Shown here piece after piece: positions 4,584-45,239 of a stretch of DNA of 64,000 nt (positions are counted from its first letter, which is position 1; every line of letters starts with the position of its first letter). The notes under the pieces were generated by a model. That model ran no database searches and was not told where the DNA came from. It saw only the letters and a list, made by a program, of their open reading frames with translations. The DNA comes from Gammaproteobacteria bacterium (GTDB taxonomy: Bacteria; Pseudomonadota; Gammaproteobacteria; GCA-001735895). Location: the NCBI GenBank assembly GCA_029862005.1, contig JAOTYD010000003.1:70158-134157 (forward strand), in the 5' to 3' direction. Position numbers and translations under genes: made by a program.

Positions 4584-4647
4584 ATCCGGTTAGCGCAGGC
4601 CGGGAGCGTGCCACAGCGTTTTGGCAACGTCCGTAACCCGTTAACAA

Positions 4648-8064: not shown

Positions 8065-8163
8065 GTCATTGCCGCGACAGCGGCGGTCCGACGTATCGGT
8101 ATCTTGAGATTACGGCATTGTTGCAGGATCCCGGATATGTGCTTCGCAAATTCCGGGATGACG
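8065..8163. repeat. REP-like doublet (CGTC-tagged type) upstream of valS
   Basis: GTCATTGCCGCGACAGCGGC... at 8065 and the inverted unit GGATCCCGGA..TCCGGGATGACG at 8126-8163. Confidence 0.6.
8085..8099 (-). repeat. 15-bp mini-hairpin module CCGATACGTCGGACC, copy 1
   Basis: GGTCCGACGTATCGG is the exact reverse complement of 15316-15330. Confidence 0.75.
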
Positions 8164-8173
8164 CCTGGAGGCG

Positions 8174-8455
8174 TCAATTTTTGAGGTGTTGCTGGATGGC
8201 CAGCTTGATTTCCTGCCAGGCACGTTCCACGTGTTCGTCGAAAATGCGACGAACAATCTGCTCGAGTTCCGGGTTATCCTGAAATGGGTCAACGCTTTCG
8301 GTTTCGGGAGCCGCGAGTTCAATTTCAACGTTCTCGTTGAAGGGTGCCGCGACGCCGGTATCCAGTTCGTCATCCAGGCCCAGGTCGGACAACTTGATCT
8401 CGATGCCTTTTTCTATCAGGTCAGTCAAAATTGGAATGTCGGTCTGATCGCTCAT
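8174..8455 (-). CDS. Small acidic hypothetical protein between holC and valS
   Basis: N-terminal IPILTDLI motif, C-terminal helix, 4-nt overlap with holC stop. Confidence 0.75.
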   Translation of the reverse strand: MSDQTDIPILTDLIEKGIEIKLSDLGLDDELDTGVAAPFNENVEIELAAPETESVDPFQDNPELEQIVRRIFDEHVERAWQEIKLAIQQHLKN

Positions 8456-8865
8456 AGATTAATGTGTTTGAGCGGATAACCGCGTTCCTTATAGTAACTG
8501 TAATGTGCACGCGCCTGGGTCTTATTTTCTTCGGTGACCAGTTCGATGACGCGCTCGAATTGCGCAAAATAGGATGGAACCGATGCTGATAGATTGATTA
8601 ATAGTTGGCGCTCTCCGTCGGGGTCGGGATTATCATTGATCAGGATAGGCGTAACCAGGTCCCCGGTTTCCTCCCGGTCGTGGGGCAAGAAGCTGTCATC
8701 GGAGTAAGTCCAGAGCCTGTTATCGAGATGCTCGCTCTGTTGCTGGTTTTGTGTCAATAGCAGGGTAAGCTGTCGGTTTTCATATGCTTTCTGGCATAAC
8801 TGGCAAACCACGCGGTCATAACTGGTGCCTTCGGGATTCAGCTGGTAAAAATCGATTCGCGTCAT
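8452..8865 (-). CDS. holC: DNA polymerase III subunit chi
   Basis: MTRIDFYQL, LDNRLWTYSDDSFLPH, FERVIELV, YYKERGY; start overlaps pepA stop (TAATG). Confidence 0.96.
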   Translation of the reverse strand: MTRIDFYQLNPEGTSYDRVVCQLCQKAYENRQLTLLLTQNQQQSEHLDNRLWTYSDDSFLPHDREETGDLVTPILINDNPDPDGERQLLINLSASVPSYFAQFERVIELVTEENKTQARAHYSYYKERGYPLKHINL

Positions 8866-10352
8866 TACTTGATCTGGTTGAGTATGTACTGTGTGAGCAA
8901 CGGAACCGGACGACCGGTAGCGCCTTTCTCTTCGCCTGATTTCCATGCAGTACCTGCAATGTCCAGGTGCGCCCATTTGTAATCCTTGGTAAATCTTGCC
9001 AGAAAGCAGGACGCCGTAATGGTACCAGCATCGCGGCCGCCGATATTGGCCATATCGGCAAAATTACTTTTTAACTGGTCCTGGTACTCGTCCCACAGGG
9101 GCAATTCCCAGATTTTATCGTCGATTTGTTGTCCGCTCTTTATCAGGCCGTCGATCAAGGCTCGGTTGTTACCGAGTACCGCTGAAGGAATTTTCCCGAG
9201 CGCGATAATCGCGGCACCGGTAAGGGTAGCAATATCGATAACACAGCACGGTTTGAATTTTCGGGCATAGGTCAGGGCGTCGCAAAGAATCAGGCGTCCT
9301 TCTGCATCCGTGTTAAGAATCTCGATGGTTTGTCCCGACATGCTGGTGACAATATCGCCCGGTTTTGTGGCAAGTCCGTCGGGCATGTTTTCAGTGGCTG
9401 GAATGATCCCCACCACGTTAATCGGCAATTGCAGCTGGGTAACGGCTTTCAATGTACCGACTACAGCAGCCGCACCGCACATATCAAATTTCATTTCATC
9501 CATCGCGGCGCCTGGCTTTAGCGATATTCCACCGGTATCGAAAGTGACACCTTTACCGACCAGTGCAATCGGTTGCTCTTTCGCCGCCGCTCCGCGGTAT
9601 TCCAGTGTAATCAGCTTTGCCGGTTGCCGACTACCGGCACTGACCGAAAGCAGAGAGCCCATTTTCAGCCGTTTCATATCTGCCTCATCGAGCACGCTAA
9701 CCCGCAGACGCTTGTCTTCCCTGGCTAACAGCCTGGCCTGCCGGGCGATGTAACTCGGGGTACAAACATTTGCCGGCAGGTTGCCAAGGTCCCTGGTGAT
9801 GCTCATCCCCGCGCTAATCGCCTGCGCTTCAGCAACGGCCTGTTTTGCCTTGCTTGAATCACTCCTTGGAATATTGAAGTTCAACTTGCGCAAGCCTTTG
9901 CGCTGCCGAGATTTATTACTTTTAAGCTGGTCGAACTGGTATTCGCTGTTACTTGCCAGCAGTGTCGCCTGTCTGATTTTCCAGGTCAGGTCACGACTCT
10001 TTAGCGCAATATCACCGGGGTAGAGTTCGGCGTCGCGGGCACCGCAAGCCGAGAGTGCATCCATAATCGAATTAATCAACCGGGCAAAGTTACGCTCGTT
10101 CATTTCGGTTTGCTTACCGCAGCCTACCAGTAAAACACGCTGCGCCGGGACGCCAGCAACATCTGCTAGCATCAGGGTTTGCCCCAGCTTTCCTTCCATG
10201 TCACCGCGCTTGATAATCGACGTCAGGAATCCCTTGCTGGCCCTGTCAACGTGCTGACCGCTGCGAGACAATTTTCGGGGCTGCGAAACGGTAATTATCT
10301 GGCAAGCGCTACGCGTATTCTCGGGGCTATTATGCTTCAGGCTGAATTCCAT
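8865..10352 (-). CDS. pepA: Leucyl aminopeptidase (M17)
   Basis: VGKGVTFDTGGISLKP, MKFDMCG, NTDAEGRL; start MEFSLK at 10352. Confidence 0.98.
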   Translation of the reverse strand: MEFSLKHNSPENTRSACQIITVSQPRKLSRSGQHVDRASKGFLTSIIKRGDMEGKLGQTLMLADVAGVPAQRVLLVGCGKQTEMNERNFARLINSIMDALSACGARDAELYPGDIALKSRDLTWKIRQATLLASNSEYQFDQLKSNKSRQRKGLRKLNFNIPRSDSSKAKQAVAEAQAISAGMSITRDLGNLPANVCTPSYIARQARLLAREDKRLRVSVLDEADMKRLKMGSLLSVSAGSRQPAKLITLEYRGAAAKEQPIALVGKGVTFDTGGISLKPGAAMDEMKFDMCGAAAVVGTLKAVTQLQLPINVVGIIPATENMPDGLATKPGDIVTSMSGQTIEILNTDAEGRLILCDALTYARKFKPCCVIDIATLTGAAIIALGKIPSAVLGNNRALIDGLIKSGQQIDDKIWELPLWDEYQDQLKSNFADMANIGGRDAGTITASCFLARFTKDYKWAHLDIAGTAWKSGEEKGATGRPVPLLTQYILNQIK

Positions 10353-10510
10353 GATATTCCTGGTGTTGGTGGCTGTGATAACGCGATAAGATACGTGAAG
10401 CGCCAAAAAAAACCAGCCGTATATGACAAAATACTGTGATTATTCAGCGTAGTTTAAGTAATCGGCAAGCAGACTGCCAGGGGCCTAAATAATCGGATGC
10501 CAATCCAGTC

Positions 10511-11608
10511 ATGCGCAACATAATAACATCCTACCTGTCGCAGGAAATTCTTAAAACCAGCGCGGCAACGATGCTGGTTCTGTACATTATTCTAATGAGT
10601 AATGCCCTCGGCAGGGTTCTGGCCGATATTGCCGATGGCGATGTTCCTCGGCAGGCTCTGACTGCGGTTATGTTAAGCCAGTCGGTTAACATGCTGGCAT
10701 TGTTGTTGCCGATAAGTTTTTTCCTCGGAATTATTTTCACTTTTGGGCGCATGTACAAAGATCACGAGATAGTGGTAATGAATGCTTGTGGTATCGGATA
10801 TCGCGATTTCTACAGACCCGTTGTTATCGTCCTGCTGCCATTGTTACTTTTCACCAGTTTTGCAAGCCTTTCGCTCAATGCGAAAATGCAGGCTAACGCA
10901 CGAGCGATTGTCGACCGGGAAGAGAATCAGCACGAGTTTCACCAGATAAAGCCAGGTCAGTTCAACCAGGGCGAAAGTGATGATACAGTATTTTTCATGG
11001 AGTCGATGAGTACCGACAAGCTTGAATTACAGGAGGTGATTATCGGTGAGACCGGTCAGGATCAGATGATCCTGGAGATCGCGAAAACAGGTCGGCAGAA
11101 GCTGGATGAACAAAGCGGCGATTTATTTCTTGTTGTCGGGCCGGGCCAGCGAGTCGAGGGCACGGCTGGACTAAAGAATTTCAAAATTATCGACTACGAT
11201 CAGCACGGCATTTTACTCGAGAGGCAGGTTAATAAAGTCGAATCACGGGTTCGAAGTAAAGAAAAAACCTTAACCGAGCTCTGGTCGTCGGATCAAAACA
11301 ATGACCAGGTTGAGCTGCAGTGGCGGATCGCCATCCCAGTGGTACTTGCAGTTCTGGCATTGCTCGCAGTGCCGTTGTCCTACATTTCGCCCCGGCAGGG
11401 ACGTTTTGGTAAAGTTGGATATGCCCTGGTGGCTTATATCGTCTACCTCAATCTCGTGGTGGTGACTCGCGCTCAACTCGAGGCGGGAACGATACCCATG
11501 ACTGTTAATTTCTGGGGGGTACACCTGTTGTTTGTTGCATTTACCGGTGTCCTTTTATATCGGCGTAACAACGGTGTTCTGTTTTACATGAACAAGCCAG
11601 TGGCATGA
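10511..11608 (+). CDS. lptF: LPS export ABC transporter permease LptF
   Basis: Divergent from pepA; GRMYKDHEIVVMNACG, ELQWRIAIP, PRQGRF. Confidence 0.95.
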   Translation: MRNIITSYLSQEILKTSAATMLVLYIILMSNALGRVLADIADGDVPRQALTAVMLSQSVNMLALLLPISFFLGIIFTFGRMYKDHEIVVMNACGIGYRDFYRPVVIVLLPLLLFTSFASLSLNAKMQANARAIVDREENQHEFHQIKPGQFNQGESDDTVFFMESMSTDKLELQEVIIGETGQDQMILEIAKTGRQKLDEQSGDLFLVVGPGQRVEGTAGLKNFKIIDYDQHGILLERQVNKVESRVRSKEKTLTELWSSDQNNDQVELQWRIAIPVVLAVLALLAVPLSYISPRQGRFGKVGYALVAYIVYLNLVVVTRAQLEAGTIPMTVNFWGVHLLFVAFTGVLLYRRNNGVLFYMNKPVA

Positions 11609-12711
11609 TACTTAACCGATACATTATTCGCACGATTCACCTCGGAACCTTTACTTCGCTACTGGCACTGGTTGGCCTCGGCCTGTTTTTTCTTTTTGTC
11701 GGTGAGCTCGATGATCTTGGTGATGGAAAATATGATTTCCAACAAATCCTCAAGTTCGTAGCACTGAGTTTTCCGGGAAAAGTTGTCGAATTCATGCCGC
11801 TCGCAGCTCTGCTCGGCAGCATGCTCGGGTTGGGTGCGCTGGCCAGCAATAGCGAGATTATTGCGATGCAGGCTTCCGGACTCTCACTGAGGAAATTGGT
11901 CAGTCCGGTCGTACAGGCAGCGGTAATATTAGCGGTGCTTAATTTTTTGCTGGCGGACTGGGTGGTTCCGGATAGCGAGACTTACGCGCGCAATGTCAAG
12001 AATCTTGCACAGGAAAAAACCTCGGCGTTGCTTGTCAGGGAAGGACTCTGGACCAAGGATGAGTCGAGGGTATTACACATCGGGCAACTTCTACCAAATG
12101 GAGTCGCGCGTGATATCGAGATATTCGAGCTTGATAACAAGGGAAGACTGTTCTCTGTGCTCAAAGCAGAGCGTGCCATTCCCCTGGAGCAGGGATGGGA
12201 GTTACACCGGATCCAGAAGTCGATAATCAGTGATAATCAAGTCGAGACGCTGCGCTATGACCAGCTGGTCTATGAAGGCAACTTGTCACCCCAGTTGCTT
12301 GAGGTGTTGATGATAGAACCGAGGCAAATGTCGAGTGGTGATTTACGTGCCTACCTTAACTTCCTGGAGGAGAACAGGCTCGACGGCAGGGTTGAGCGTC
12401 TGATTTTCTGGCAGAAAATTTTGGCACCTTTTACCATTGTTGTCATGTGCCTGCTGGCGTTTCCGTTTGTGCTCGGGTCTCAACGCCAGGGCAACACGGG
12501 GCAGCGTCTGCTGATCGGAATACTGCTGGGTTTGGCATTTGTGGTTGTCGATCGGCTGGTGATACAGCTGGGGAACCAGTTTGAAGTCAATGCGCTGGCG
12601 ATTGCACTGATACCCAGCCTGGCTTTTCTCGGAATTGCGGTTTACATGTTGTTAAAGAACCAGTCCCATGGGCCCGGTGGTAGATTACTTTTTAGCCCGA
12701 TCAAAGCCTGA
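11605..12711 (+). CDS. lptG: LPS export ABC transporter permease LptG
   Basis: LGALASNSEIIAMQASG, FWQKILAP; ATGA overlap with lptF. Confidence 0.95.
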   Translation: MILNRYIIRTIHLGTFTSLLALVGLGLFFLFVGELDDLGDGKYDFQQILKFVALSFPGKVVEFMPLAALLGSMLGLGALASNSEIIAMQASGLSLRKLVSPVVQAAVILAVLNFLLADWVVPDSETYARNVKNLAQEKTSALLVREGLWTKDESRVLHIGQLLPNGVARDIEIFELDNKGRLFSVLKAERAIPLEQGWELHRIQKSIISDNQVETLRYDQLVYEGNLSPQLLEVLMIEPRQMSSGDLRAYLNFLEENRLDGRVERLIFWQKILAPFTIVVMCLLAFPFVLGSQRQGNTGQRLLIGILLGLAFVVVDRLVIQLGNQFEVNALAIALIPSLAFLGIAVYMLLKNQSHGPGGRLLFSPIKA

Positions 12712-13128
12712 AATGTCGATAATGCTGGTCTGACTGAGTTTATCGTGCCAGGTGTAGGGCTTGAAAAGTCGCCAAAAATAGCCAAGACCAAAACACAGTA
12801 TCGAAACCAGGGCAAAAGCAAGGCGCAGGTAACTGCTACCCCAACCCGGATTGCCACCGGACTCGGCGACAATACGAATTTTCCATGCCCGCATTCCCAG
12901 GGTTTGTCCTGATCTGTGCCAGAACCAGGCATAGAATGAAAACAGGATGAACAACAGGTAAAGACTGAACAGAGGACTTGATTCGATCGCTTCACCGCGG
13001 TTGAAGATTAGCGCAATTGCAGTTGAAAAAAAAAGCACTGCAAAAATTAATAAACTGTCATACAACATGGCCGCAAATTGTTTGAACAAACTTGCAGGAG
13101 GGTAGCCATGATAAAAATTGGTTGTCAT
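12685..13128 (-). CDS. RDD family membrane protein
   Basis: AAMLYDSLL and GQTLGMRAWKIRIV...WHDKLSQT motifs; usual neighbour of lptG. Confidence 0.92.
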   Translation of the reverse strand: MTTNFYHGYPPASLFKQFAAMLYDSLLIFAVLFFSTAIALIFNRGEAIESSPLFSLYLLFILFSFYAWFWHRSGQTLGMRAWKIRIVAESGGNPGWGSSYLRLAFALVSILCFGLGYFWRLFKPYTWHDKLSQTSIIDISGFDRAKK

Positions 13129-13340
13129 AACTTTTATTGATTGCGTTTAAGACACATTCAAATTGAAAGAATTCATGTTGATAAAACTAATGAAAAATTT
13201 CATACTATTTTTTTGTCAGACAACTATAATACACGACGTAACTCAGTTCGTAGTGTTTGCAATTAGTACCAACTTGCTATTGTATTATTGTGGATGCTTT
13301 TTTTAATCACATTCGTAAGTCAACGTGAGGAGACCGGACG

Positions 13341-13883
13341 ATGGCGACAGCAAAGAGAGCAGCAAAGTCGAAACCAAAAGCTAAATCTGCAGCAAAGAAA
13401 AAAGCAAGGAAGCCCGCAGTAAAAAGGAAAGCAGTTAAGAGACCCGCGACCAAAAGGAAAGCGGTTAGGAAGTCAGCAGTAAAGAAGAAGGCAGTTAAGA
13501 GACCGGCGGCTAAAAGGAAAGCGGTCAAAAAGTCAGCAACAAAGAAGAAAGCAGTTAGAAGACCCGCGGTCAAGAAGAAGGCGGTCAAAAAGTCAGTAGC
13601 GAAGAAGAAGGCAGTTAAAAGACCCGCGGCCAAAAAGAAGGCGGTCAAAAAGTCAGCAGTAAAGAGGAAAGCGGCTAAGAGACCGGCGGCCAAGAGGAAA
13701 ACGGCTAAGAGACCGGCGGCCAAGAGGAAAGCGGCTAAGAGACCGGCGGCCAAGAGGAAAGCGGCTAAGAGACCGGCGGCCAAGAGGAAAGCAGTTAAAA
13801 GAGCCGCGCCCAAAAGGAAAGCGGTAAAAAGACCGGCAGCTAAGAAAAGGGCGACTCGTTCCGCTACAAAAAAAAAGCGGTAA
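13341..13883 (+). CDS. Histone H1-like Lys/Arg/Ala-rich DNA-binding protein (0-frame product, 180 aa)
   Basis: GAGGAG RBS; about 16 ten-residue units like KRKAVKRPAA; AT-rich upstream region. Confidence 0.85.
   Translation: MATAKRAAKSKPKAKSAAKKKARKPAVKRKAVKRPATKRKAVRKSAVKKKAVKRPAAKRKAVKKSATKKKAVRRPAVKKKAVKKSVAKKKAVKRPAAKKKAVKKSAVKRKAAKRPAAKRKTAKRPAAKRKAAKRPAAKRKAAKRPAAKRKAVKRAAPKRKAVKRPAAKKRATRSATKKKR
13391..13850 (+). repeat. 30-nt period coding tandem repeat
   Basis: Four near-identical units GCGGCTAAGAGACCGGCGGCCAAGAGGAAA at 13671-13790, with more diverged units on both sides. Confidence 0.9.
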
Positions 13884-14149
13884 AGCCTAAAGTTAAGAAG
13901 CGACCCACTGCAATAAAGAAGGCTGCCGCTAATCCAAGGATCAAGGCGCTTGATGATACAGTCAAAACCTTGAAAGAGCAGGTACAGGGATTAAGGAATG
14001 AAGTTCGTGACGCCAAAAGGCGTGCCGATGCCCTGGGTAAGTTATCTGACAAGAGAGGCGCTGCTATCTCAAAATTTGTGTATGGATGGGATAAGCAGGC
14101 CAAATTGGCGGTTACCAGGTCTACGAGGCCACGAACGAAGAAAAGGTAA
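13877..14149 (+). other. Unannotated -1 frame continuation (90 codons) of the histone-like protein
   Basis: AVKPKVKKRPTAIKKAAANPRIKALDDTVKTLKEQVQGLRNEVRDAKRRADALGKLSDKRGAAISKFVYGWDKQAKLAVTRSTRPRTKKR*; no start codon near its 5' end; begins right after an A9 run. Confidence 0.8.
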
Positions 14150-14178
14150 TTGATCTTCATGTTTGGCAAAATATTAAC

Positions 14179-14204
14179 AGGCACAGTAAGCTGTGCCTTT
14201 TTTT
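14179..14204 (+). terminator. Rho-independent terminator
   Basis: AGGCACAG-TAAG-CTGTGCCT followed by T6. Confidence 0.85.
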
Positions 14205-14208
14205 ATCA

Positions 14209-15120
14209 ATGAAAAAAACTTCCATGCAACCTGGCGATCCGGAAATCGAGCGCTTTATCGATAGCCTTTGGTCGCAAAAAGGTTTGGCTGATCGAACGCT
14301 GAGTGCCTATCAGCAGGACATGCGCCAGTTTTCGCGCTGGCTACAGACGCGGCAACAAAAGCTGCAAAATGCCGAGCAGTCAAGTATCCAGCATTTTTTA
14401 GCTGAACGCTTTGATCAAGGCGCCTCAGCACGTTCCAACGCTCGCCTGTTGTCGACCCTGAAACAATACTATCGATATTTAATCAAGATCGGGGATCGCC
14501 AGGACAATCCCACCGCTTTAATCAGTGCGCCCAGGATTCATCGAACCTTGCCGCAGTCGCTCACCGAAAGCGATGTTGAAAAGTTATTGGCCGCTCCGAA
14601 CCTTGAATCCAATTTTGGTCTTCGGGATCGCGGTATGCTCGAGCTTATGTACAGCTCCGGGCTGCGTGTCAGTGAACTGGTGGGCCTGCAAGTGAACCAG
14701 GTAAATACCAATCTCGGTCTGGTGCGGTTGGTCGGGAAAGGTAGCAAGGAGCGGGTTATTCCCGTCGGTGAGGAAGCATTACACTGGCTCGCACAGTATC
14801 TGAAGAGTTCACGCCCCGGTTTGCTGCAGGGGCATGTGAACAATGATGCGCTGTTTATATCGAGTCGCGGTACCGCGATTACGCGTCAGGCGTTCTGGCA
14901 AAATATCAAGAAGTACCTGCTCAAGGCGGGCGTTAAAACTGTTTTTTCGCCACACTCGTTGCGCCATGCGTTTGCCACGCATTTGCTTAATCATGGTGCG
15001 GATTTACGCACGGTACAGATGTTGCTCGGGCACAGCAGCCTGTCGACAACGCAGATTTATACGCACATCGCCCAGGCACGCCTGCAATCACTTCACGCCG
15101 AACACCATCCCCGCGGCTAA
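14209..15120 (+). CDS. xerD: Site-specific tyrosine recombinase XerD
   Basis: LRDRGMLELMYSSGLRVSEL, GKGSKER, SPHSLRHAFATHLLNHGADLRTVQMLLGH, TTQIYTH. Confidence 0.96.
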   Translation: MKKTSMQPGDPEIERFIDSLWSQKGLADRTLSAYQQDMRQFSRWLQTRQQKLQNAEQSSIQHFLAERFDQGASARSNARLLSTLKQYYRYLIKIGDRQDNPTALISAPRIHRTLPQSLTESDVEKLLAAPNLESNFGLRDRGMLELMYSSGLRVSELVGLQVNQVNTNLGLVRLVGKGSKERVIPVGEEALHWLAQYLKSSRPGLLQGHVNNDALFISSRGTAITRQAFWQNIKKYLLKAGVKTVFSPHSLRHAFATHLLNHGADLRTVQMLLGHSSLSTTQIYTHIAQARLQSLHAEHHPRG

Positions 15121-15231
15121 CAAAATCCTTAACCCGCCTCCGTACCCTACACCTCAAAAATTGCCTGCCTGCTACTATTCATTGCATCATTTGGTTGTCT
15201 TCTATCAGTTTCGATGCTGTACCTGGATGGT

Positions 15232-15382
15232 GATGCTAGCTTGAAGGAAAGATCACAAAAGACGCTCCCGACCGGCGCAAGCACCGGTTGGTCCTTCGAT
15301 GGAAACGCTTGGAGCCCGATACGTCGGACCATGGCATCCATGCCTCGCTACTCTTTTGTAAACTTTCCCTCGTGCTAGCATC
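15232..15382. repeat. Palindromic repeat family 1, copy a (diverged, carries 15-bp insert)
   Basis: 30-bp imperfect arms (15232-15261 / 15353-15382, 25/30) around a core homologous to 45137-45212; between convergent xerD and ybbN. Confidence 0.85.
15316..15330 (+). repeat. 15-bp mini-hairpin module CCGATACGTCGGACC, copy 2
   Basis: Present here but absent at the equivalent core position of copies b and c. Confidence 0.75.
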
Positions 15383-15428
15383 GAACCTAATAAGTGTTGG
15401 TTAATGTTGAGGGGGTTAGGTGAGAATA

Positions 15429-16292
15429 CTAGTGGAGCAGGTTGAAGAGTTTGCGACGATACTTTTGCACGCTGGGATGTTCGCCACCGAGCATATCAAA
15501 TAATTCGAGCATGCTGGTACGACTGATATCATCCTCGAAACCACGATCGGTACGCATGATCGTCAGCAGGCATTCCATGGCGTTGTCGTAATCACCTTGC
15601 GCGGTCAAGTGCCTGCTTTTCTGCAACAACGCTTTAAGATCATTGGGATTCTGGGCCAGGCGCTGCTCGATTTCGCTCGGGTCGGGCAAATCGGCAAGCT
15701 GTGCCGCGAGGTTGATTTCGGCGCGCAGCTTGATTGCCGCATCCAGTTTAGCGCCTTCGTTGTCGAGGCTGTCCAGTAACGCCTGCGCACTCTCGGTATC
15801 GCCCTCGCCATAAACCATTTGTGCGATTGTAACCTTGAGTTCGGCATTATCGGGGTCCTTGGCAAGCACATTATTAAGCACTTCAAGCGCCTGTGCGGTA
15901 TTGCCCTGCTGATAAGCCATCATGGCGGCCTGAACCATTTGATCGGATTCTGACACGATGTGCTTGTCGATCATCGCGCGAATATCCGATTCCGGCACCG
16001 CACCCATGCGTTCATCGACGATTTGCCCCTGGTAGAAAAGTTTCATCGTGGGCAGGCTCTTAATACCGAAATGCGCGGCCAATTCCTGCTCCTCGTCAGC
16101 ATTCACCTTGGCCAGTTCGAACTTTCCTGCATATTCTTCAGCGAGTTTGGCCAGCATCGGCATAATGGTTTGGCAGGGTTGGCACCAGTCCGCCCAGAAA
16201 TCGACCAAAACAGGCTTATTAACCGATTTTTCCAGCACCAGATTCTGGAAATTCTGCATACCGACATTGTGAATATAAGGTGACTCGCCCAT
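15429..16292 (-). CDS. ybbN: Thioredoxin-TPR chaperedoxin YbbN/CnoX
   Basis: VLVDFWADWCQPC thioredoxin domain plus TPR C-terminus ending YRRKLFNLLH. Confidence 0.93.
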   Translation of the reverse strand: MGESPYIHNVGMQNFQNLVLEKSVNKPVLVDFWADWCQPCQTIMPMLAKLAEEYAGKFELAKVNADEEQELAAHFGIKSLPTMKLFYQGQIVDERMGAVPESDIRAMIDKHIVSESDQMVQAAMMAYQQGNTAQALEVLNNVLAKDPDNAELKVTIAQMVYGEGDTESAQALLDSLDNEGAKLDAAIKLRAEINLAAQLADLPDPSEIEQRLAQNPNDLKALLQKSRHLTAQGDYDNAMECLLTIMRTDRGFEDDISRTSMLELFDMLGGEHPSVQKYRRKLFNLLH

Positions 16293-16393
16293 AATAGAGA
16301 ACCTGAAAAAAGATGCGCATTATATCAGGCAGATGGTCACTAAATACAAGGATCTGTGTTAGTGCGATCGTTTAAACTCAGGAAGCACTTCAT

Positions 16394-18280
16394 TTGAAAA
16401 ATCAGTACGACGCCGCCTCGATAGAAGTCCTCACGGGGCTCGAACCGGTCAAGAAGCGACCGGGGATGTATACAGACACTACTCGTCCCAATCATCTTGC
16501 TCAGGAGGTGATTGACAATAGTGTCGATGAGGCCATTGCCGGCTATGCCACGCAAATCGGTGTGATTTTGCACACCGACCAGTCGCTTAGCGTCATCGAT
16601 AACGGACGCGGTATGCCGGTTGATATACATCCACAGCAGAAAATCCCCGGGGTCGAGGTAATCCTGACCAAGCTGCATGCCGGTGGCAAGTTTTCAAATA
16701 AGAATTACCAGTTCTCGGGAGGACTGCACGGCGTCGGTGTCTCGGTCGTCAACGCGTTATCAAAAAAACTCGATGTGCGCGTCCGTCGTGACAGCAAGGA
16801 ATACACGATCAGTTTCACCAATGGCAATAAAAAAGACAAACTGAAGCAGACCGGCACGGTTGGAAAAAAGAACTCCGGCACCAGTTTACGCTTTTGGCCT
16901 AATCCCAGGTATTTTGACAGCCCTAATTTCTCGGTAGCGCGACTTAAACATGTATTGCGCGCCAAGGCGGTCCTGTGCCCGGGATTGCGTGTAAAATTTT
17001 ATGTTGAAAAGACCAAGGAAACGGTCGAATGGATATACGAGGACGGACTTTCCGATTATTTACTCGCGTCACTAGCCGATTTCGAGCTATTACCATCACA
17101 ACCTTTTGTCAATTCTCTCCAGGGTGAGCATGAGGCGGTAGACTGGGCAGTGCTATGGCTGCCGCAGGGTGGTGAATCCATTACCGAAAGCTACGTTAAC
17201 CTGGTCCCCACGTCACAGGGCGGCACCCATGTCAACGGACTGCGTACGGGTATTACCGATGCGATCCGCGAGTTTTGTGAATTTCGCAACCTGCTGCCGC
17301 GTGGTGTCAAGATCGCACCGGACGATGTCTGGGACAAGGTCAGTTTCATACTCTCGGTAAAAATGGAGGAGCCGCAGTTTTCGGGGCAAACCAAGGAACG
17401 CCTGTCATCGCGGGAAACCGCGGCCTTTGTATCCGGGGTTGCCAAGGATTCCTTTAGCCTTTGGCTTAATCAGCACGCGGATGTTGGTGATCAGCTCGCA
17501 CAACTGGCAATAACAAGCGCGCAAAGCCGATTAAAAAGTGCCAAGAAAGTCGTACGCAAGAAGGTAACAACCGGTCCCGCGCTGCCCGGTAAACTGTCAG
17601 ACTGCAGCAGCCAGGACGTGGCGCGTACCGAAATTTTTCTGGTGGAGGGCGATTCGGCCGGCGGCTCGGCGAAACAGGCCCGTGATCGCGTGTTCCAGGC
17701 GATCATGCCGCTACGCGGTAAAATTCTGAACACCTGGGAAGTGCCTTCGGACCAGGTGCTGGGTTCGCAGGAGGTGCACGACATATCGGTTGCGATAGGG
17801 GTGGAACCCGCGTCGGATAACTTGTCCAATCTGCGCTACGGGAAAATCTGTATTCTTGCCGATGCCGATTCCGATGGTGCACATATCGCCACCTTGTTAT
17901 GTGCGCTGTTCTTGCGGCATTTTAAACCTCTGGTTGAAAAGGGGCATGTTTACGTGGCCAAGCCACCCCTGTATCGAATTGATATTGCGAAGGACAAGTA
18001 TTACGCGCTCGATGAAGCCGAGCGTGACGGCATTCTCGATCGTATCACGGCAGAAAAGCGCAAGGGCAAGGTAACGGTAACCCGCTTCAAGGGGCTCGGG
18101 GAAATGAACCCGATGCAGCTACGTGAAAGTGCCATAGCACCCGAAACCCGGCGCCTGGCGCAGCTGACGATAGCTCCAGGGGATAAGACCTTTAAAATCA
18201 TGGACATGATGCTGGCCAAGAAACGCGCCGCGGATCGCAAGGACTGGCTGCAAACCAAGGGAGACCTGGCCGAAGTATGA
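16394..18280 (+). CDS. parE: DNA topoisomerase IV subunit B
   Basis: [50 protein letters not shown]; TTG start. Confidence 0.98.
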
Positions 18281-20529
18281 ATGAGAACCTGGAACTCAAC
18301 TACGAGGGCGTCGAGGAACAGCCGCTCCATGTCTTTACCGAAAAAGCTTATCTCGACTACTCGATGTACGTCATCCTCGACCGTGCACTACCGCACATCG
18401 GCGATGGGCTGAAACCGGTACAGAGACGCATTATCTATGCAATGTCGGAGCTGGGGCTTTCGGCGAGTTCCAAGCACAAGAAATCGGCCCGCACGGTCGG
18501 CGACGTGCTGGGTAAGTATCATCCGCATGGCGATAGCGCCTGCTACGAAGCGATGGTGCTGATGGCGCAGCCGTTTTCTTACCGTTACCCGCTGATCGAT
18601 GGCCAGGGTAATTTTGGCTCCCCCGATGATCCGAAATCGTTTGCCGCGATGCGTTACACCGAATCGCGTTTGTCTGAATTTGCACGGGTATTGCTGCAGG
18701 AACTTGGCCAGGGTACCGTCGACTGGGTTGCGAACTTTGATGGCACCATGGAAGAGCCGTCGCTATTGCCCGCCCGCCTGCCGCATATTCTACTCAACGG
18801 CACCACCGGGATCGCGGTTGGAATGGCCACCGATCTGCCGCCGCACAACCTGCGAGAAATTGCCAAGGCCTGCATCATGTTGCTGGACAAGGTTAAAACA
18901 CCGCTCGATGATTTACTCAAGCACGTCAAGGGCCCGGATTACCCGACCGAGGCAGAAATCATCACACCGCAGGACGAGTTACGCGATCTTTATGAAAGCG
19001 GCCACGGCTCGATTCGCATGCGCGCAATATATGAACGCGAAGATGGCGACATTATCGTCACCGCGTTGCCACACCAGGTTTCCGGCGCACGTGTAATGGA
19101 ACAGATTGCGCAACAAATGCTGGCCAGGAAATTGCCCATGGTGGACGATTTACGCGACGAGTCAGATCATGAAAACCCGACCAGACTGGTAATTGTGCCA
19201 CGCTCCAACCGGGTCGATGTCGAGGCTCTGATGGGGCATTTGTTTGCGACTACCGATCTTGAACGCACCTACCGCGTCAATATGAACATGATCGGTACCA
19301 ACGGTCGCCCGCAGGTTAAAAACCTGAAGCAGATTCTGCAGGAATGGATTGCTTTTCGGGTGACCACAGTGCGCCGTCGGCTGCAATGGCGGCTTGATAA
19401 AGTTGACAAGCGTCTGCATGTTCTCGAAGGCCTGTTGATTGCCTTTTTGAACCTGGACGAGGTTATTCGTATTGTGCGCAATGAAGACGACCCCAAGGCG
19501 GCGTTGATCAAGACATTCAAAATCAGTGATATCCAGGCCGAAGCGATACTTGAAACCAAGTTGCGGCATCTGGCCAAGCTCGAAGAAATGAAGATACGTG
19601 CCGAACAGGACGAACTCAGCGATGAGAAAAAAGAGCTTGAAAAATTACTGGGATCCGATCGACGGATCAAGACAATGATCAAACAGGAAATCAAGGAAGA
19701 TGCTGCAACCTACGGCGACGACAGGCGTTCGCCGATTGTCAGTCGAGACGCGGCACGGGCACTCGACGAAGCCGACCTGGTGCCATCCGAGGCAATTACG
19801 GTCGTGTTATCAGCGATGGGATGGGTGCGCGCTGCCAAGGGGCACGATATCGACGTGCGTGCGCTTAACTATAAGTCTGGCGATAGTTTTCAGGACATGG
19901 CGCAAGGCAAGAGCAACCAGAACGTGGTGTTCGTCGATTCCTTCGGTCGTGCTTATGCCCTGGCGGCGCATTTACTGCCGTCGGCACGTGGACAGGGTGA
20001 ACCGCTTACCGGGCGTTTCAAACCGGCAAGCGGGGCCGAGTTCAAGAGCTGTGTAATGGGGCGCGACGACGATCAATTTCTCATGTCCTCGTCGCATGGC
20101 TACGGCTACGTCTGCAAGTTTGAAAACATGTTGACCCGAAGCAAGAATGGCAAAGCCCAGATCAGCTTGCCTCGTGGCGCGCAAATGATGCAGGTGGTAG
20201 CGGTAACCGACTACAACAAAGATCAGATCGTATCGATCACCAGTGACGGTTACATCGCTTTGCTTGATGTTGAATCGATTCCACAGCTGGCCAAGGGCAA
20301 AGGTAACAAGATCCAGGGGATACCGCCGCGACGTATTAAATCAGGGGATGAGGAGATCGCTTTTATCACTTGCCTAACGGGCAAACAAAAGCTCGTAATC
20401 CATTGCGGCAAAAAATATAAAACCATGAACTTGAAAGAACTTGAGGACTATCGCATCGAACGGGGTAAGCGTGGGCGCAAATTGCCGCGCGGTTATCAAA
20501 ATGTAACTGCAATTGAGGTCGTTGATTAA
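18277..20529 (+). CDS. parC: DNA topoisomerase IV subunit A
   Basis: [31 protein letters not shown]; ATGA overlap with parE. Confidence 0.98.
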
Positions 20530-20558
20530 AATCAGGCAATCGGTGTGTGTTTGCCGCT

Positions 20559-21152
20559 TCAGGTACCATTTTTTATATCGTTAAAATCCCCGTGTATCTG
20601 CACAAACTTTTTTTGGTAATTCGCGCCATCGCCATAGGCTAGAAATTTGTGGTAGCGACTGTGGATCGCGGATAGTTTTCTTGCATGCTTGATTGGGCAC
20701 CAGTATTGCTCAGTCCTGGCGGCAATTTCCTGGACCCAGGCAATCAGCCCGTTAAAGTAACTGCAGTAAACACAGTTCACTTTTTCAATCCAGTTCAGAT
20801 ATTGGAGGCTTTGCTGATCGATGACTATATAGTCACTGCGCTTGACTCGGGGAATGTCATATACCCTGAAACAAATTGAATGATAAAAGGATACGACGAT
20901 ATCTAAAAAAAGCGCAGGAACCAGGCAAAACCAGATGATTGGCAGCGTCAATATGTTAAGTATTGATGCGTTCGCAAAATAGGCATGTATTTTGGTAGCA
21001 AGTGTCTGATGGTAGCGCCGGGTTTCTGCTTCGAACTTGACCCGTTTACCTTCGATGATATAAAGGTATTCATCCTGCTTTTTTTGCAGTTCCTGCAAAA
21101 GCTCCTGCTCGAGCTGCTTGATTTCGGTGATTATTTCCTCGAGTTTGTTCAT
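20559..21152 (-). CDS. Hypothetical membrane protein with Cys/His motifs
   Basis: Coiled-coil N-terminus, one TM, NCVYCSYFNG and RTEQYWCPIKH motifs. Confidence 0.8.
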   Translation of the reverse strand: MNKLEEIITEIKQLEQELLQELQKKQDEYLYIIEGKRVKFEAETRRYHQTLATKIHAYFANASILNILTLPIIWFCLVPALFLDIVVSFYHSICFRVYDIPRVKRSDYIVIDQQSLQYLNWIEKVNCVYCSYFNGLIAWVQEIAARTEQYWCPIKHARKLSAIHSRYHKFLAYGDGANYQKKFVQIHGDFNDIKNGT

Positions 21153-21240
21153 AACGACTCCGACCGGGTCAATATAAGGAATAGATTGCGAGACAGTATG
21201 ACCTGTTTCGGCAGAGCCAGGTCACATCTTTGGGCCGCGC

Positions 21241-23325
21241 CTACATGGAGCTGAAATCGTAATTCAATTCCTTGTCCGGTGCCTGCAGGAATTCGCCCTG
21301 CACGAAGTCGACATTCAATGTCCACAAGACACTCAGTACTGCCGCGTCAGTGACACCGGGAGTGATCGTATTAACACCCAGATCGTCCGACTGGTAGGCG
21401 AGTTCGCGAATACTTTCCTGATTCTCTTTATTCTGCGCGAGATTATCCATATAGGCATGGTTGATGCGTACGTAGTTCGCGTTGACGTGCTTGACCAACT
21501 GAAACGGATTCAGTCCAGTGCCAAACTCGTCGATGGCGAACTTACAGTGGATTTGCTGGAGGCCCTTGGCCAGGATTTTGGCAGCTTTCAATTGATTCAC
21601 CGCCTGCGCCTCGTTGATCAGGAACACGAGTTGCTCTCCGCTTACCTTTGCCTTGCTCAGGTTTTCCGATATCCAGACCGCGAGCCCGGAGTCCTGGAAT
21701 GAATCAGCGCTCAGGGCCACGAAGAATTCGATTTTACGGCCGTGTTTGCTGGTTTCGGAAATCTTTTTGATGGCGTGCAGTATCCTCCAGCGATCAAGCA
21801 TTTTGGCAGTGCCGGTGCGTTCCGCGGCGCCCAGGAAATCATGCTCGTAAAGCGTGCGCCCATCCTTGGTGATGATTTCAAGACTCGAGATGTAGCGTTC
21901 TCCTCCCTGAGCCTTGACGCCAATAATGGGCTGATAAAGCCCGCTGATCCGGTTACTATTAAGCGCTTCCTTGATAAGGCTGGCCGTATTCCGGTCGTCT
22001 TCTTCCTGGGTCATTTCCCCCGCTTTCGGGATATAGGTTTTTGATTGATTGCCGCCGTTATCCTGAATTTCCTGACAGGTTTTCTCGGCACGGGATATGA
22101 TTTCATTTGGATTATCAGGAGTATTCTCGTCGATAAACACGACTGAGGTGCTGCAGGTTGTACTGATCGATTGATTACCGATTTCCGATATGTGTCCCTC
22201 AACCAGGCTGGGTATCCTGTCAGCGAGCTCCTCGGCGGCCTTTCGTTCCTTAATTTTAATCAGGCAGGTGTAGGAGCAAGCGCCAAAGCGGGCGATGATG
22301 TCTTCATCGCCAGTGTTTTTGGTCAGGATTCCGGCGATATCTTTAATCAATGTATCGCAACCTGAAATTCCGATCATATCGCGTATCGACTGGAAATTAT
22401 CGATGGCAATGTAAATTAAGGCTGACTGACTTTTGCCATTGACTGCCAGGGTGATCGCAGTTTTCAGTTCGTCCATGAAAAACGGGCGGTTTAATAGTCC
22501 GGATATCAGGTCGTGCTGGTGCAGGTAGTTGATCTGTTCCTCGAGTTCCGAGGTATCAGAGCCAGAGCGAATCAGGATCTGGGTACAGGGTTCTCCATCA
22601 TAACTGGCGCGAGAAAATTCAAGCTTTGCAGAAATTCTCTCACCGCTGCTATGAATGAGCTGCAGCTCGAGCTCGTTGGTTTCATTTTCGTTTTTGCTGA
22701 GTTCACGTAAAAAGGTTTTCAGTTCGCTTTGTTGCGACGTGTCAACCATATCAATGATCGGGGTACCCTCGAGTTCATCGAAGTCAGCATTACCAAACAA
22801 TTCCATGTAAACCTCGTTGGCAAAAATATGCATTCCTTCATGGACATAGGCCACGGCATCTTTTGAATGGGAAAGCAGGTTCTGGCAACGTTTCTCGCTC
22901 TCCTGGAATTCGAGCTCGAGCCGCATAGCGCGCCGCCACATATTAATATTGTAAGCCTCGCGTTTTATCACGTGAATCAGGTGCTCGAGACTGTCACTGG
23001 CGACAACATCCTGTGCGCCTTCCTCAATCGATCTGACGATGACCTTGGAATCCAGTTTTTTTGCCATCGCGATGAGTGATACATGGCGCCCGCATTCGCG
23101 GATCAGGTGTTGACCCTGGCCCAGCGTGAAATCAGTCAGATCGACTGAAAACAGTACCAGGTCCAGAACCTTGTTTTCCAATAGATCGCACATGTCTTCG
23201 CTGTTTTCAGCAAATTCAGCGCGCACATGCATGCCGGCGGCACGCAAGGAACTGGTTATTTGCTCCGCCTTGTGAAAGCCCTCGTCCACAATAAGCAGGC
23301 GAATCAGTTTTTCTTCGTTTTCCAT
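21241..23325 (-). CDS. FimX-like REC-PAS-GGDEF-EAL protein, both catalytic motifs degenerate
   Basis: IRLLIV receiver-like N-terminus, PAS, HDLISGLLNR GGDEF entry with RFGACS, EAL domain with IDEFGTG/QGEF; start MENEEK with GGAGAC RBS. Confidence 0.82.
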   Translation of the reverse strand: MENEEKLIRLLIVDEGFHKAEQITSSLRAAGMHVRAEFAENSEDMCDLLENKVLDLVLFSVDLTDFTLGQGQHLIRECGRHVSLIAMAKKLDSKVIVRSIEEGAQDVVASDSLEHLIHVIKREAYNINMWRRAMRLELEFQESEKRCQNLLSHSKDAVAYVHEGMHIFANEVYMELFGNADFDELEGTPIIDMVDTSQQSELKTFLRELSKNENETNELELQLIHSSGERISAKLEFSRASYDGEPCTQILIRSGSDTSELEEQINYLHQHDLISGLLNRPFFMDELKTAITLAVNGKSQSALIYIAIDNFQSIRDMIGISGCDTLIKDIAGILTKNTGDEDIIARFGACSYTCLIKIKERKAAEELADRIPSLVEGHISEIGNQSISTTCSTSVVFIDENTPDNPNEIISRAEKTCQEIQDNGGNQSKTYIPKAGEMTQEEDDRNTASLIKEALNSNRISGLYQPIIGVKAQGGERYISSLEIITKDGRTLYEHDFLGAAERTGTAKMLDRWRILHAIKKISETSKHGRKIEFFVALSADSFQDSGLAVWISENLSKAKVSGEQLVFLINEAQAVNQLKAAKILAKGLQQIHCKFAIDEFGTGLNPFQLVKHVNANYVRINHAYMDNLAQNKENQESIRELAYQSDDLGVNTITPGVTDAAVLSVLWTLNVDFVQGEFLQAPDKELNYDFSSM

Positions 23326-23435
23326 AGTCTCCAGCAGTGATAATGTAACCACTCTTCCTGCAATCAATAATAGTCGATATATTTCGAATCAAACATAGAA
23401 TCCGGTATGATTAGCCTTTTCCCACCAGGACGGCA

Positions 23436-24005
23436 ATGGCTAGTTATAGTACAAACGAATTTCGCGGCGGATTGAAAATCATGCTTGACGGAGATCCTTG
23501 TGCCATTATCGAAAACGAATTCGTCAAACCGGGCAAGGGGCAGGCATTCAATCGCGTCAAGATTCGTAATCTGAAGACGGGGCGAGTGCTGGATAAGACC
23601 TTTAAGTCGGGCGATACCGTCGATGCAGCCGACGTCGTCGATACCGAAATGCAGTATCTCTACAGCGATGGCGAGTTCTGGCATTTCATGGATCCACAAA
23701 CTTACGAACAGCAGGCCGCCGACGCCAATGCAGTAGGCGATGCAAAGCTGTGGCTCAAGGCCCAGGACAACTGTGAAGTGACGCTCTATAACGGTAGCCC
23801 GATTGGCGTTACGCCGCCTAATTTCGTCGAACTTGAAATCACCGATACCGATCCCGGTTTGAAAGGTGATACCGCCCAGGGCGGTACCAAGCCGGCGACG
23901 CTGGAAACCGGCGCCGTGGTCAAGGTGCCGTTATTCCTCGAGATAGGCGAACTGGTGAAAGTGGACACCCGGTCCGGTGAATACATGTCGCGGGTGAAAA
24001 AATAG
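23436..24005 (+). CDS. efp: Elongation factor P
   Basis: [11 protein letters not shown] (Lys34 type), [17 protein letters not shown]. Confidence 0.99.
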
Positions 24006-24024
24006 CCGGGAAAACAAACTCCCC

Positions 24025-24957
24025 ATGAACTGGCAGCCATGCGCGAATCTGCCGGTTATTCGCGAAAGAGCAAGAATTTACCGACAAATCCGGTCATTTT
24101 TCAACACCCGTGGTTGTCTCGAAGTAGATACTCCCTTGCTGATGCCGACCACGACTACTGATGCGCAGATCGCTTCCATTGGAATACCGGATGGTGATCA
24201 AAAGCGTTTCCTGCAAACTTCGCCCGAATTTGCGATGAAGCGCCTGTTGGCTGCAGGCAGTGGCTCGATTTTCCAGCTCGGTCATGCCTTTCGTCAGGGT
24301 GAGGCCGGACGCCTGCATCATCCCGAGTTCAGCTTGCTCGAGTGGTACCGGGTAGGATATGACTACCAGCAACTCATGGACGAAATAGAATTGCTGATTA
24401 CAACACTGAGCCTACGGCAGTGCAGCTTTACCCGAATCAGCTACCGGAATTTATTCAGGGAGAAACTGGACCTCGTATTTGAAGAAATATCCCTGGAAGA
24501 ACTTCGCGGCCAATGTGCAAGCCGGGTTCCTGACATGAACAGTTCATCACTTGACTATGATCAGTGTCTCGATTTATTGCTGGGTACGGTCATCGCACCG
24601 GCGATGCGAGGTTACCAGTTCGTCTACGATTACCCGATTTCACAGGCCGCACTGGCGCGCATCCGCAAGGACGATGGCAATGTTGCGGAACGGTTCGAAC
24701 TTTTTTTCGACGGGATTGAACTCGCAAACGGCTTTTCCGAGCTCACTGACGCCGCGGAACAGCGGTCGCGCTTTGAGCGGGATAATGCCTTGCGTCTTGA
24801 AAGAGGATTGCCGCAGCACCCGATTGATGAGCGTTTGCTGGCAGCGCTTGAATCGGGCATGGAAGATTGTGCCGGGGTCGCGCTGGGGCTCGATCGCTTG
24901 CTGATGGTGTTACTCGAACTAGATTCTATCGACCAGGTTCTGACTTTCACCGACTAA
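24025..24957 (+). CDS. epmA: EF-P lysine aminoacylase EpmA (GenX/PoxA)
   Basis: LQTSPEFAMKRLLAAG, FRQGEAGRLHHPEFSLLEWYR, GVALGLDRL; adjacent to efp. Confidence 0.97.
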   Translation: MNWQPCANLPVIRERARIYRQIRSFFNTRGCLEVDTPLLMPTTTTDAQIASIGIPDGDQKRFLQTSPEFAMKRLLAAGSGSIFQLGHAFRQGEAGRLHHPEFSLLEWYRVGYDYQQLMDEIELLITTLSLRQCSFTRISYRNLFREKLDLVFEEISLEELRGQCASRVPDMNSSSLDYDQCLDLLLGTVIAPAMRGYQFVYDYPISQAALARIRKDDGNVAERFELFFDGIELANGFSELTDAAEQRSRFERDNALRLERGLPQHPIDERLLAALESGMEDCAGVALGLDRLLMVLLELDSIDQVLTFTD

Positions 24958-25016
24958 ACCGGCATCACGTTCCGCCCCCTCAGGGGTAATTCAGCTAAAG
25001 ATGTAATCACGCGGAC

Positions 25017-25146
25017 GCTACCTAAGGGGTAAACACGGAAAAGTGTAGCGCGGCAGGGATGCCGCGCTCCAAGCGATTCCATGGACGGACCAACCGGCGC
25101 TTGCGCCGGCTGGGAGCGCCTTTTACGTGCTTACCCCTTAGGTAGC
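25017..25146. repeat. Palindromic repeat family 1, copy b
   Basis: 27-bp arms (25/27 complementary) around a 76-nt core containing GTAG-CGCGGCA-GGGA-TGCCGCG; between convergent epmA and psd. Confidence 0.9.
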
Positions 25147-25156
25147 CGAATCATAG

Positions 25157-25298
25157 GGGCGTGGGCATTGGGGCTTGTTTGCGAGAAGCTGTGCGACGGA
25201 GTGCCGTATCACGACATCCCGCGCGCGAGCCTACATGGATGTATCGGTCCGACGCATCGGCACGGCGCTACCGCAAACAAGTCTCGATGACCGCGCCG
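25157..25298. repeat. Palindromic repeat family 2, copy a
   Basis: Arms around CTTGTTTGCG / CGCAAACAAG; core GCGCGCGAGCCTACATGGATGTAT identical to 45366-45389. Confidence 0.8.
25246..25260 (-). repeat. 15-bp mini-hairpin module, copy 3 (14/15)
   Basis: GGTCCGACGCATCGG, absent at the equivalent position of family 2 copy b. Confidence 0.7.
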
Positions 25299-45109: not shown

Positions 45110-45239
45110 GCAGCCCGGGGAGACTGCCCGCAAAAGGCGCTCCCAACCGGCGCTAGCGCCGGTTGGTCCATCCATGGAATCGCTTGGAGCGCGGCATCCT
45201 TGCCGCGCTACACTTTTGCGGGCAGTCTCCCCGGGCTGC
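45110..45239. repeat. Palindromic repeat family 1, copy c
   Basis: Perfect 27-bp arms; 76-nt core 72/76 identical to the reverse complement of copy b; between convergent aroC and yjgA. Confidence 0.92.

Follow-up and report, generated by a model that had tools for sequence, protein, structure and literature searches.

A block of 15 nucleotides (nt) was found in three different repeats of the window, i.e., a chromosomal stretch of 64,000 nt from an uncultured gammaproteobacterium (contig JAOTYD010000003.1, positions 70,158 to 134,157). The comparison of filled and empty host sequences, in the window and elsewhere, shows that this block is a derived and precise insertion without target-site duplication, repeated many times in repetitive extragenic palindromes (REPs), in IS91-family transposase genes and in a group II intron. 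From the same alignments, the insertion step is read as G^G (C^C on the other strand) within a sequence resembling the arm of CGTC-type REPs, GCGG^GRAT-C/G, and the block is seen to recur at the same site in independent lineages. The block has no coding capacity and, since it encodes nothing, must be non-autonomous.

A search of the window with the 15-mer CCGATRCGTCGGACC, the motif of the original prediction, retrieved three matches against a mean of 0.14 expected, and none of 100 dinucleotide-preserving shuffles reached three. The matches stand at the positions and on the strands first reported, each in a different repeat, and sister repeats without the block differ by exactly 15 nt. Alignment of whole elements with MAFFT gave a clean 15-column gap in both repeat families for which such sisters were located (family 2, alignment A4; family 1, alignment A5).

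The block and its filled and empty host sites

In most contexts where the boundaries can be judged, namely the arms of CGTC REPs, the IS91 genes and the group II intron, the inserted unit is CGGTCCGACGYATCG, one base off the 15-mer used for the search; it reads CGATRCGTCGGACCG on the opposite strand and its register carries a 1-nt G/C ambiguity. The conserved block frequently reaches 16–17 nt, as (G)CGGTCCGACGTATCGG, and can be read as 15–17 nt overall. Its predicted DNA fold is a mini-hairpin, CCGA-NNNN-TCGG, with a stem of 4–5 bp, in agreement with the CCGA-loop-TCGG structure proposed at the outset. In 951 kb of loci, 163 exact copies were counted, together with 30 carrying one mismatch and 23 carrying two (fewer than two expected by chance in the mismatch classes). 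A T->C change in the loop accounts for 24 of the 30 one-mismatch copies; the two distal loop bases are the most variable positions of the block, and the 3' TCG is nearly invariant.

When hosted by CGTC REPs, the block lies within one arm of the palindrome, as in ATTCCCGC-GTAA-GCGG[ CGGTCCGACGTATCG ]GAAT. After removal of the unit, 38% of the 170 unique copies showed a perfect stem of 6 bp or more, against 12% when the removed segment was shifted by 5 nt as a control. In particular, 37 unique copies gave, once the unit was removed, the perfect 8-bp AT-N6 palindromes of CGTC-tagged REPs, with 10 stem types and 13 loop types, thus arguing for many separate insertion events; this variety parallels that of the empty REPs of the same loci (41 empty palindromes). 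Either arm can be used relative to the CGTC tag, and both arms are filled in L166, L234 and L249. According to the predicted fold, insertion in a REP arm turns one 8-bp hairpin into two hairpins of 4–5 bp.

Loci L139, L142, L181 and L236, whose REPs read GTCATTCCC-GACCGCATGCGGCCCACTTAGCGG-C[block]GAAT, carry beside the block an extra stretch of 16–24 nt with the palindrome CCGCATGCGG. Part of this stretch, CGGCCCACTTAGCGG, is identical to the block at 10 of 15 positions and may be a decayed older copy.

In-frame copies in genes, envisaged in the original prediction, do occur. The carrier genes code for IS91-family transposases (Pfam Y2_Tnp), in which the block adds the residues DTSDR: the sequence VKVIACIEDQ is present in about 100 of 111 homologues, and VKVIA[DTSDR]CIEDQ in nine of the 111. 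At least four lineages can be distinguished among the filled proteins, and their nearest empty relatives are 96, 89, 87 and 85% identical, compared with 78% at most to other filled lineages. In a fifth filled/empty pair (P0014/P0024), 132 of 135 residues are identical besides the five additional ones, and the corresponding DNA (alignment A6) differs by two substitutions in about 490 nt (≈99.6% identity) and by an exact 15-nt indel, the flanks of which are identical. In the IS91 genes the DNA of the unit reads CGATACGTCGGACCG and has entered without duplication at ATYGC^C, with the same junction register as in REPs; the target reads ACAG^GCGATGAC (ACAG^GCRAT), and no significant fold was predicted for it. 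Decay of the block is visible in coding copies as well, DTSDH and DTSDG being found in IS91 homologues. The block-carrying IS91 elements are targets of insertion. A role of IS91 as the mobiliser was considered and rejected, the oriIS-like end (…CTTTTATACTTCTTATACTT) being unrelated to the block.

The IS91 transposase genes also host a second small palindrome, CCCAAAGCATTCGCTGCGCTCACGGGGCAGGCTCTCG (37 nt; read as PKAFAALTGQAL), which was observed at nt 996–1032 of L180, at another site in L184 and L185, and in the protein P0025, once directly beside the 15-nt site and elsewhere in the other cases. Further short insertion modules may exist. Moreover, the IS91 copies L343/L344 and L345, ≈99.6% identical over the rest of their sequence, are only ≈60% identical across a frame-breaking patch of about 55 nt (A6 columns 133–190); this patch may be a distinct small insert that changes rapidly and occupies a second site.

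Filled group II introns, matching the Rfam D1-D4 models, were found in L110, L220 and L243 (Microbulbifer and two metagenome contigs) with the arrangement CTGGGG[unit]GGATCT, the target being GGGG^GGATCT. Two aligned introns from enterobacterial plasmids, 80–83% identical and the best of 350 matching plasmid records, are devoid of exactly these 15 nt. The unit is followed in filled introns by GGATCT or GAATCT, as in REPs; the corresponding sequence of empty introns is AGATCT.

Besides CGTC REPs, IS91 genes and the intron, the block is hosted by GTAG-type repeats, and other REP classes have it close to the loop, inserted at CCGG^GTCRAG or CCGC^GGTCAAG. The position within the hairpin varies (3' arm, 5' arm or loop edge), the constant feature being the G^G step within a REP-arm-like context. 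The bases preceding the insertion point vary too (TTC, TCC, CGC, TGC, GAC, ACC), with C^C...G common to all. The variable position, together with the IS91 site that does not fold significantly, indicates that structure alone is not the determinant, and the targeting of single-stranded DNA (ssDNA) hairpins is not supported as originally formulated. Tandem arrays of 2–4 units with a 17-nt period were also found. Where the units are unequal, the degenerate ones lie 5' and the canonical one is 3'-most in three clear cases, the reverse order being found in none; a canonical unit always at one end of the array points to repeated insertion at one site. The possibility that the block represents the joined ends or the footprint of a larger element was rejected: half-motifs alone occur at chance level, in coding sequence, and no copies split around a larger element were found.

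Copies in the window and distribution of the block

Copy A is an exact match on the minus strand, where it reads CCGATACGTCGGACCG (nt 8084–8099; 15-mer at nt 8085–8099), in the 3' arm of a GTCAT-type REP. Its host (nt 8065–8108, plus strand) is a CGTC/GTCAT-tagged REP, GTCAT-TGCCGC-GACA-GCGGC[module]TATCTTGAG, of a class described in PMC3733652, and has a 93-aa gene and valS as neighbours. Excision in silico gives GTCAT-TGCCGC-GACA-GCGGC-TATCTTG, a REP of the CGTC/GTCAT type with one stem mismatch, so that the REP-like palindrome expected upon removal at nt 8085 is indeed restored. An inverted partner REP, read from the sequence as GTCAT-CCCGGA...TCCGGG-AT, lies without the module at nt 8128–8162 (minus strand); its loop, AATTTGCGAAGCACATA, is 17 nt long instead of the usual 4–5 nt and may be another small insertion.

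Copy B (nt 15316–15330, plus strand), identified by motif search and alignment, is also exact. It lies in a filled family-1 element (nt 15232–15382, plus strand) made up of a GTAG-tagged hairpin and a second hairpin, both enclosed by a copy-specific outer stem of 30 bp, and flanked by the convergent xerD and a thioredoxin-TPR gene. Two empty sisters were located, at nt 25017–25146 (minus strand; empty junction at nt 25057–25072) and nt 45110–45239 (plus strand; empty junction at nt 45184–45199). Copy C (nt 25246–25260, minus strand) is the loop variant CCGATGCGTCGGACC, matching 14 of 15 positions with an A->G change in the loop; its host is a filled family-2 element with a GTAG-tagged hairpin (nt 25174–25281, plus strand), placed between the convergent epmA and psd. 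The empty family-2 sister is found at nt 45329–45415 (plus strand; empty junction at nt 45382–45397). The existence of sister copies lacking 15 nt, on which the original reading relied, is thus borne out at three junctions.

Family 1 is a repeat of 130–150 nt whose core consists of the GTAG-tagged hairpin and a CCAACCGGCGC..GCGCCGGTTGG hairpin within an outer stem of 27–30 bp. Besides the three elements of the window, it was observed in L016, L145, L240 and L245. The sequence of the outer stem is copy-specific while its pairing is kept, with compensatory changes at 24 of 49 pairs in seven copies, and convergent genes lie on both sides in every case. Family 1 could be a REPIN-like element, a structured RNA or a terminator; it has no Rfam match, and an Rfam scan of the window found no family.

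Contigs identical to this stretch are present in several metagenome assemblies, and the sole syntenic reference found is L016, from a gammaproteobacterial metagenome-assembled genome (MAG), at ≈75% identity. A further feature of the window is a gene at nt 13341–13883 (plus strand) encoding a Lys/Ala/Pro-rich protein of 180 aa with KKAVKRPAAKR repeats, built on about 14 tandem units of 30 nt, which resembles a histone H1/AlgP-like nucleoid protein.

Species-representative genomes were scanned with the bare 15-mer, yielding at least 120 matches; about 70% of the matches listed are attributable to chance, most of these being C-variant matches within genes of taxa with a high GC content. In at least about 25 loci, hairpin repeats contained the T variant with GC directly before it; nearly all of these loci are from Gammaproteobacteria, the carriers including MAGs, the Olavius Gamma 3 symbiont, Microbulbifer, Marinobacter, Saccharospirillum and a Pseudomonas. 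With GCGGTCCGACGTATCGG as query, metagenomes yielded at least 120 loci (720 kb) with 147 copies. At least about 170 further distinct copies were recovered from public genomes and metagenomes, the majority from uncultured marine or sediment Gammaproteobacteria. Carriage by phages was rejected, since the 86 single matches in viral contigs are chance-like: none of them belongs to a REP context, and GC precedes only about three.

The block was also observed in a widespread repeat of the CCCTCTCCC-N-GGGAGAGGG-TTAGGG type, at TTAGGG^GAG (L014, L086 (Spirosoma, Bacteroidota), L053 (Marinobacter), L135, L173, L176 and L192). Copies of this type outside Gammaproteobacteria hint at a host range broader than one class.

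Origin of new copies

The original prediction had seen in the block either an ultra-short non-autonomous mobile module or a template-switch product. Its nature as a derived non-coding insertion stands, and it may be of either kind. Judging from the distribution and junctions of the copies, we would give about even chances to enzyme-mediated transposition of a non-autonomous 15-nt module. Gain and loss are seamless, one site is reused, new copies are identical and repeats folding as ssDNA are preferred, all of which points to a trans-acting activity on ssDNA. Such an enzyme, already engaged in processing the host repeats, would make the new copies in trans, the candidates being an HUH Y1 transposase of the type of REP-associated tyrosine transposases (RAYTs) and IS200, or a machinery linked to the GIY-YIG Ssn nucleases. 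It would cleave G^G sites and join a module copy into them, a 'peel-and-paste' single-strand transposition by which gain and loss would be seamless and free of duplication. Were recognition limited to intact modules, most copies would be identical and older ones would decay; copies lying within IS91 elements or group II introns would be transferred with them between genomes.

In single-stranded REPs, RAYTs are known to cut at dinucleotides that the tag determines, and they are capable of strand transfer (PMC8266576). Both the CGTC and the GTAG repeat classes were catalogued by Di Nocera et al. (PMC3733652), and PMC11893778 presents CGTC REPs, including Neisseria dRS3/NTS, as motifs of the GIY-YIG single-strand nucleases Ssn. 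Five loci contain a single-domain, Ssn-like GIY-YIG gene of about 96 aa at no more than about 130 nt from filled CGTC REPs (L031, nt 4296–4592, minus strand; L238, nt 427–717; L151, L168 and L172), two of the encoded proteins matching Pfam PF01541 (E = 8.5e-14 and 3.5e-16). In L031, two identical filled REPs in direct orientation stand one on each side of the GIY-YIG gene. As REPs cluster around such genes anyway, this adjacency is only a lead; NCBIfam and PDB sequence searches with the GIY-YIG proteins returned nothing useful.

Several observations weigh against an inserted module moved by such an enzyme. No mobilising gene emerged from the loci around the copies, where clustering of open reading frames gave only IS91, itself a target, and the small GIY-YIG cluster. 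No recurrent cluster of Y1-like genes was found in about 0.95 Mb of these loci, in which RAYTs, being single-copy, need not fall, as loci are not whole genomes; likewise, the HUH/IS200-like gene with the motif in its ends that had been envisaged was not found. According to PMC11893778, Ssn binds the hairpin and cuts a few bases upstream, and not in the arm. Moreover, 15 bases accommodate one mini-hairpin and not the two structured ends needed by elements of the IS200/IS605 type. At the three sites of the window no filled/empty polymorphism was seen, strain-level contigs retrieved through the flanking genes being all identical and all filled. Junctions are not fully uniform either: in one subclass, GCAGGG-C[..]GG-TCTT, one base is replaced, and families 1 and 2 fit a register shifted by one base. 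The 15-mer boundary first proposed fits copy A and family 1 equally well or better, and is one base off in most other contexts that can be judged. Such non-uniform junctions and shifted registers would suit a copying process based on microhomology, and the likeness of the intron and IS91 targets to REP flanks could reflect either a target preference or microhomology with donor copies. Finally, retrieval of loci by exact match inflates the share of exact copies, and all collection scans were of this kind, making their counts biased lower bounds.

It is possible, though in our judgement rather unlikely, that empty sites instead receive the block by copying from filled ones, through short-patch gene conversion or template switching of a polymerase, with similar REP-arm flanks, or microhomology at look-alike sites, as the basis. 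Nicks made by REP-binding nucleases may stimulate this process, and a homing-like drive may result if filled hairpins escape Ssn/RAYT binding, the 8-bp hairpin that Ssn binds being destroyed by the insertion. The majority of copies do lie in repeats with near-identical flanks, but no co-converted flank accompanies the indel of the near-isogenic IS91 pair. The IS91 and intron targets mimic REP flanks, as seen in the GGATCT/GAATCT of filled introns against AGATCT in empty ones; however, in an IS91 lineage where Ser follows the site (L337) the flanks are unlike both those of REPs and those of other filled IS91 copies. The junctions are microheterogeneous, as copying would have it, yet IS91 offers only 3–7 nt of microhomology and the same site was still used in several lineages. 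Variant modules with the loops CGCC and CGAC accompany particular host families, which is also consistent with copying, whereas the identical sequence in distant hosts would not be preserved by drift under pure conversion.

Very unlikely, in our opinion, is synthesis from a master template, in which a reverse transcriptase or a telomerase-like activity would extend a nick in the G-run along a fixed template of RNA or DNA, with resealing through G-run microhomology. This would predict identical new copies whatever the resident ones are, and in tandem arrays the new units are indeed canonical beside a degenerate neighbour; slippage, however, better explains the identical degenerate units in L211. 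The block length of 15, 16 or 17 nt with G-run overlaps at the junctions, the lack of target duplication and the sequence identity across hosts would fit as well, but neither a reverse transcriptase nor a template locus was found near the copies. It also counts against this mechanism that we know of no bacterial precedent for the synthesis of such a block from a master template.

Even less credible is that the block is not mobile at all, being an old optional module of mosaic repeats, comparable to the linker motifs of Escherichia coli bacterial interspersed mosaic elements (BIMEs), lost by deletion from the sister copies and kept for protein binding or for the usefulness of its RNA hairpin, whose loop is of the UNCG type on the CCGAUNCG strand. 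The stem is kept while loop positions vary, and filled family-1 subfamilies are present in several genomes; nevertheless, the block interrupts one arm of otherwise perfect palindromes and, in a coding sequence, brings five extra residues. The copies lie mainly between convergent genes, where hairpins act on transcripts, but they show no orientation bias with respect to flanking genes (15 sense, 12 antisense); a bias for the replication strand was not found either (GC-skew split 45:54). Above all, the empty state is ancestral in the IS91 transposases and in the intron, which largely refutes this explanation; together with the REP comparison, it also disposes of the ancestral block with deleted sisters that had been named as the finding to overturn the original prediction.

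Chance, an assembly error or an adapter artefact may be taken as already refuted: most C-variant matches in high-GC genomes and all viral matches do look like chance in coding sequence, but the shuffles of the window never gave three matches, T-variant matches concentrate in Gammaproteobacteria in the same hairpin contexts, isolates (Microbulbifer, Marinobacter, Saccharospirillum) carry the block, as does a separately deposited scaffold of the Olavius symbiont, and the same contigs were found in independent samples.

Relation to known elements and implications

The host repeats are of known kinds, while the block itself is without the defining features of GTAG REPs, CGTC REPs/SRMs, miniature inverted-repeat transposable elements (MITEs) and IS200/IS605 miniatures. 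With the REP/REPIN elements served by RAYTs (TnpA-REP, HUH Y1) it shares being short, non-coding, high-copy, hairpin-forming and non-autonomous, and a presumed movement as ssDNA without target duplication; two of the host repeats of the window carry GTAG-tagged hairpins. However, REPs measure 20–40 nt and have a 5' GTAG tag and a stem of at least 7 bp, whereas the block has 15 nt, a stem of 4–5 bp and no GTAG. It also resides inside other REPs, a coding sequence and an intron, and no RAYT gene was found adjoining it.

CGTC REPs (NTS/SRM; CGTCAT-N6-loop-N6-AT) are the main host class, and the block itself contains the tetranucleotide CGTC. The features of SRMs, namely a CGTC, TGTC or CCTC tag, an AT-initiated stem of 8–9 bp, a loop of 4–5 nt and a short CCA-like tail, are found in the host repeats and not in the block, which interrupts SRM stems, while Ssn cuts upstream of the hairpin and not at the insertion point, according to PMC11893778. 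An adjoining single-domain GIY-YIG gene, also typical of SRMs, was present in the five loci mentioned above (≈96 aa versus ≈94 aa for Ssn). The available parts of PMC3733652 and PMC11893778 describe no 15-nt insertion.

Footprint-free insertion and excision and a preference for REPs or hairpins are shared with IS200/IS605 elements and their derivatives PATEs, and with REP-targeting insertion sequences of the IS1397, ISPpu9 and IS621 type. Gain and loss of the block are likewise seamless and without duplication, as seen in the near-isogenic IS91 pair and in the intron, but the two subterminal hairpins and the fixed tetra- or pentanucleotide 5' of the insertion that characterise IS200/IS605 elements and PATEs were not found. 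PATEs are at least about 100 bp long and insertion sequences about 1 kb or more, whereas the block has 15 nt and no conserved target word of 4–5 nt. Unlike MITEs, defined by terminal inverted repeats and target duplication, the block brings a net gain of exactly 15 nt, and its ends, CGGT.../...ATCG, are not inverted repeats.

The in-frame insertion of a palindrome adding a short peptide to genes recalls the Rickettsia palindromic elements (RPEs), which Ogata et al. in 2000 are said to have described as selfish palindromes lying in frame within protein genes. RPEs are ≈100–150 bp long and restricted to one genus, whereas the block adds 15 nt and five residues and is common to many genera. E. 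coli BIMEs are built from short combinable modules, i.e., REP types Y, Z1 and Z2 and linker motifs, and include REP variants with short indels. Their motifs are not known outside BIMEs; the block, on the contrary, is shared by repeat families unrelated to each other, by a transposase gene and by an intron, and there is evidence that its insertion is recurrent. A literature search for the block sequence in either orientation gave no match, and no published description was found, in line with the original prediction, which recognised none.

As a tentative and rather speculative proposal, the block could represent a new and smallest class of mobile DNA, a 15-nt cassette that a trans-acting enzyme would either paste as an ssDNA oligonucleotide or write from a master template, with seamless insertion and excision at G^G. 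By breaking the hairpins of Ssn and RAYTs, the cassette may drive its own spread as an 'immunity' insertion, while riding IS91 elements and group II introns between genomes. To our knowledge, no shorter insertion element exists, if the block is to be so classed.

If this were true, the seamless insertion and removal of 15 nt at defined sites would set a new lower size limit for mobile DNA and would imply an enzyme activity undescribed in bacteria, either oligonucleotide transfer or templated writing, which could serve as a tool. The block offers a clean marker for repeat turnover and is a source of in-frame insertions of five residues in genes. As it interrupts hairpins recognised by Ssn and RAYT, the module may also tune the action of these repeats on replication intermediates or incoming DNA.

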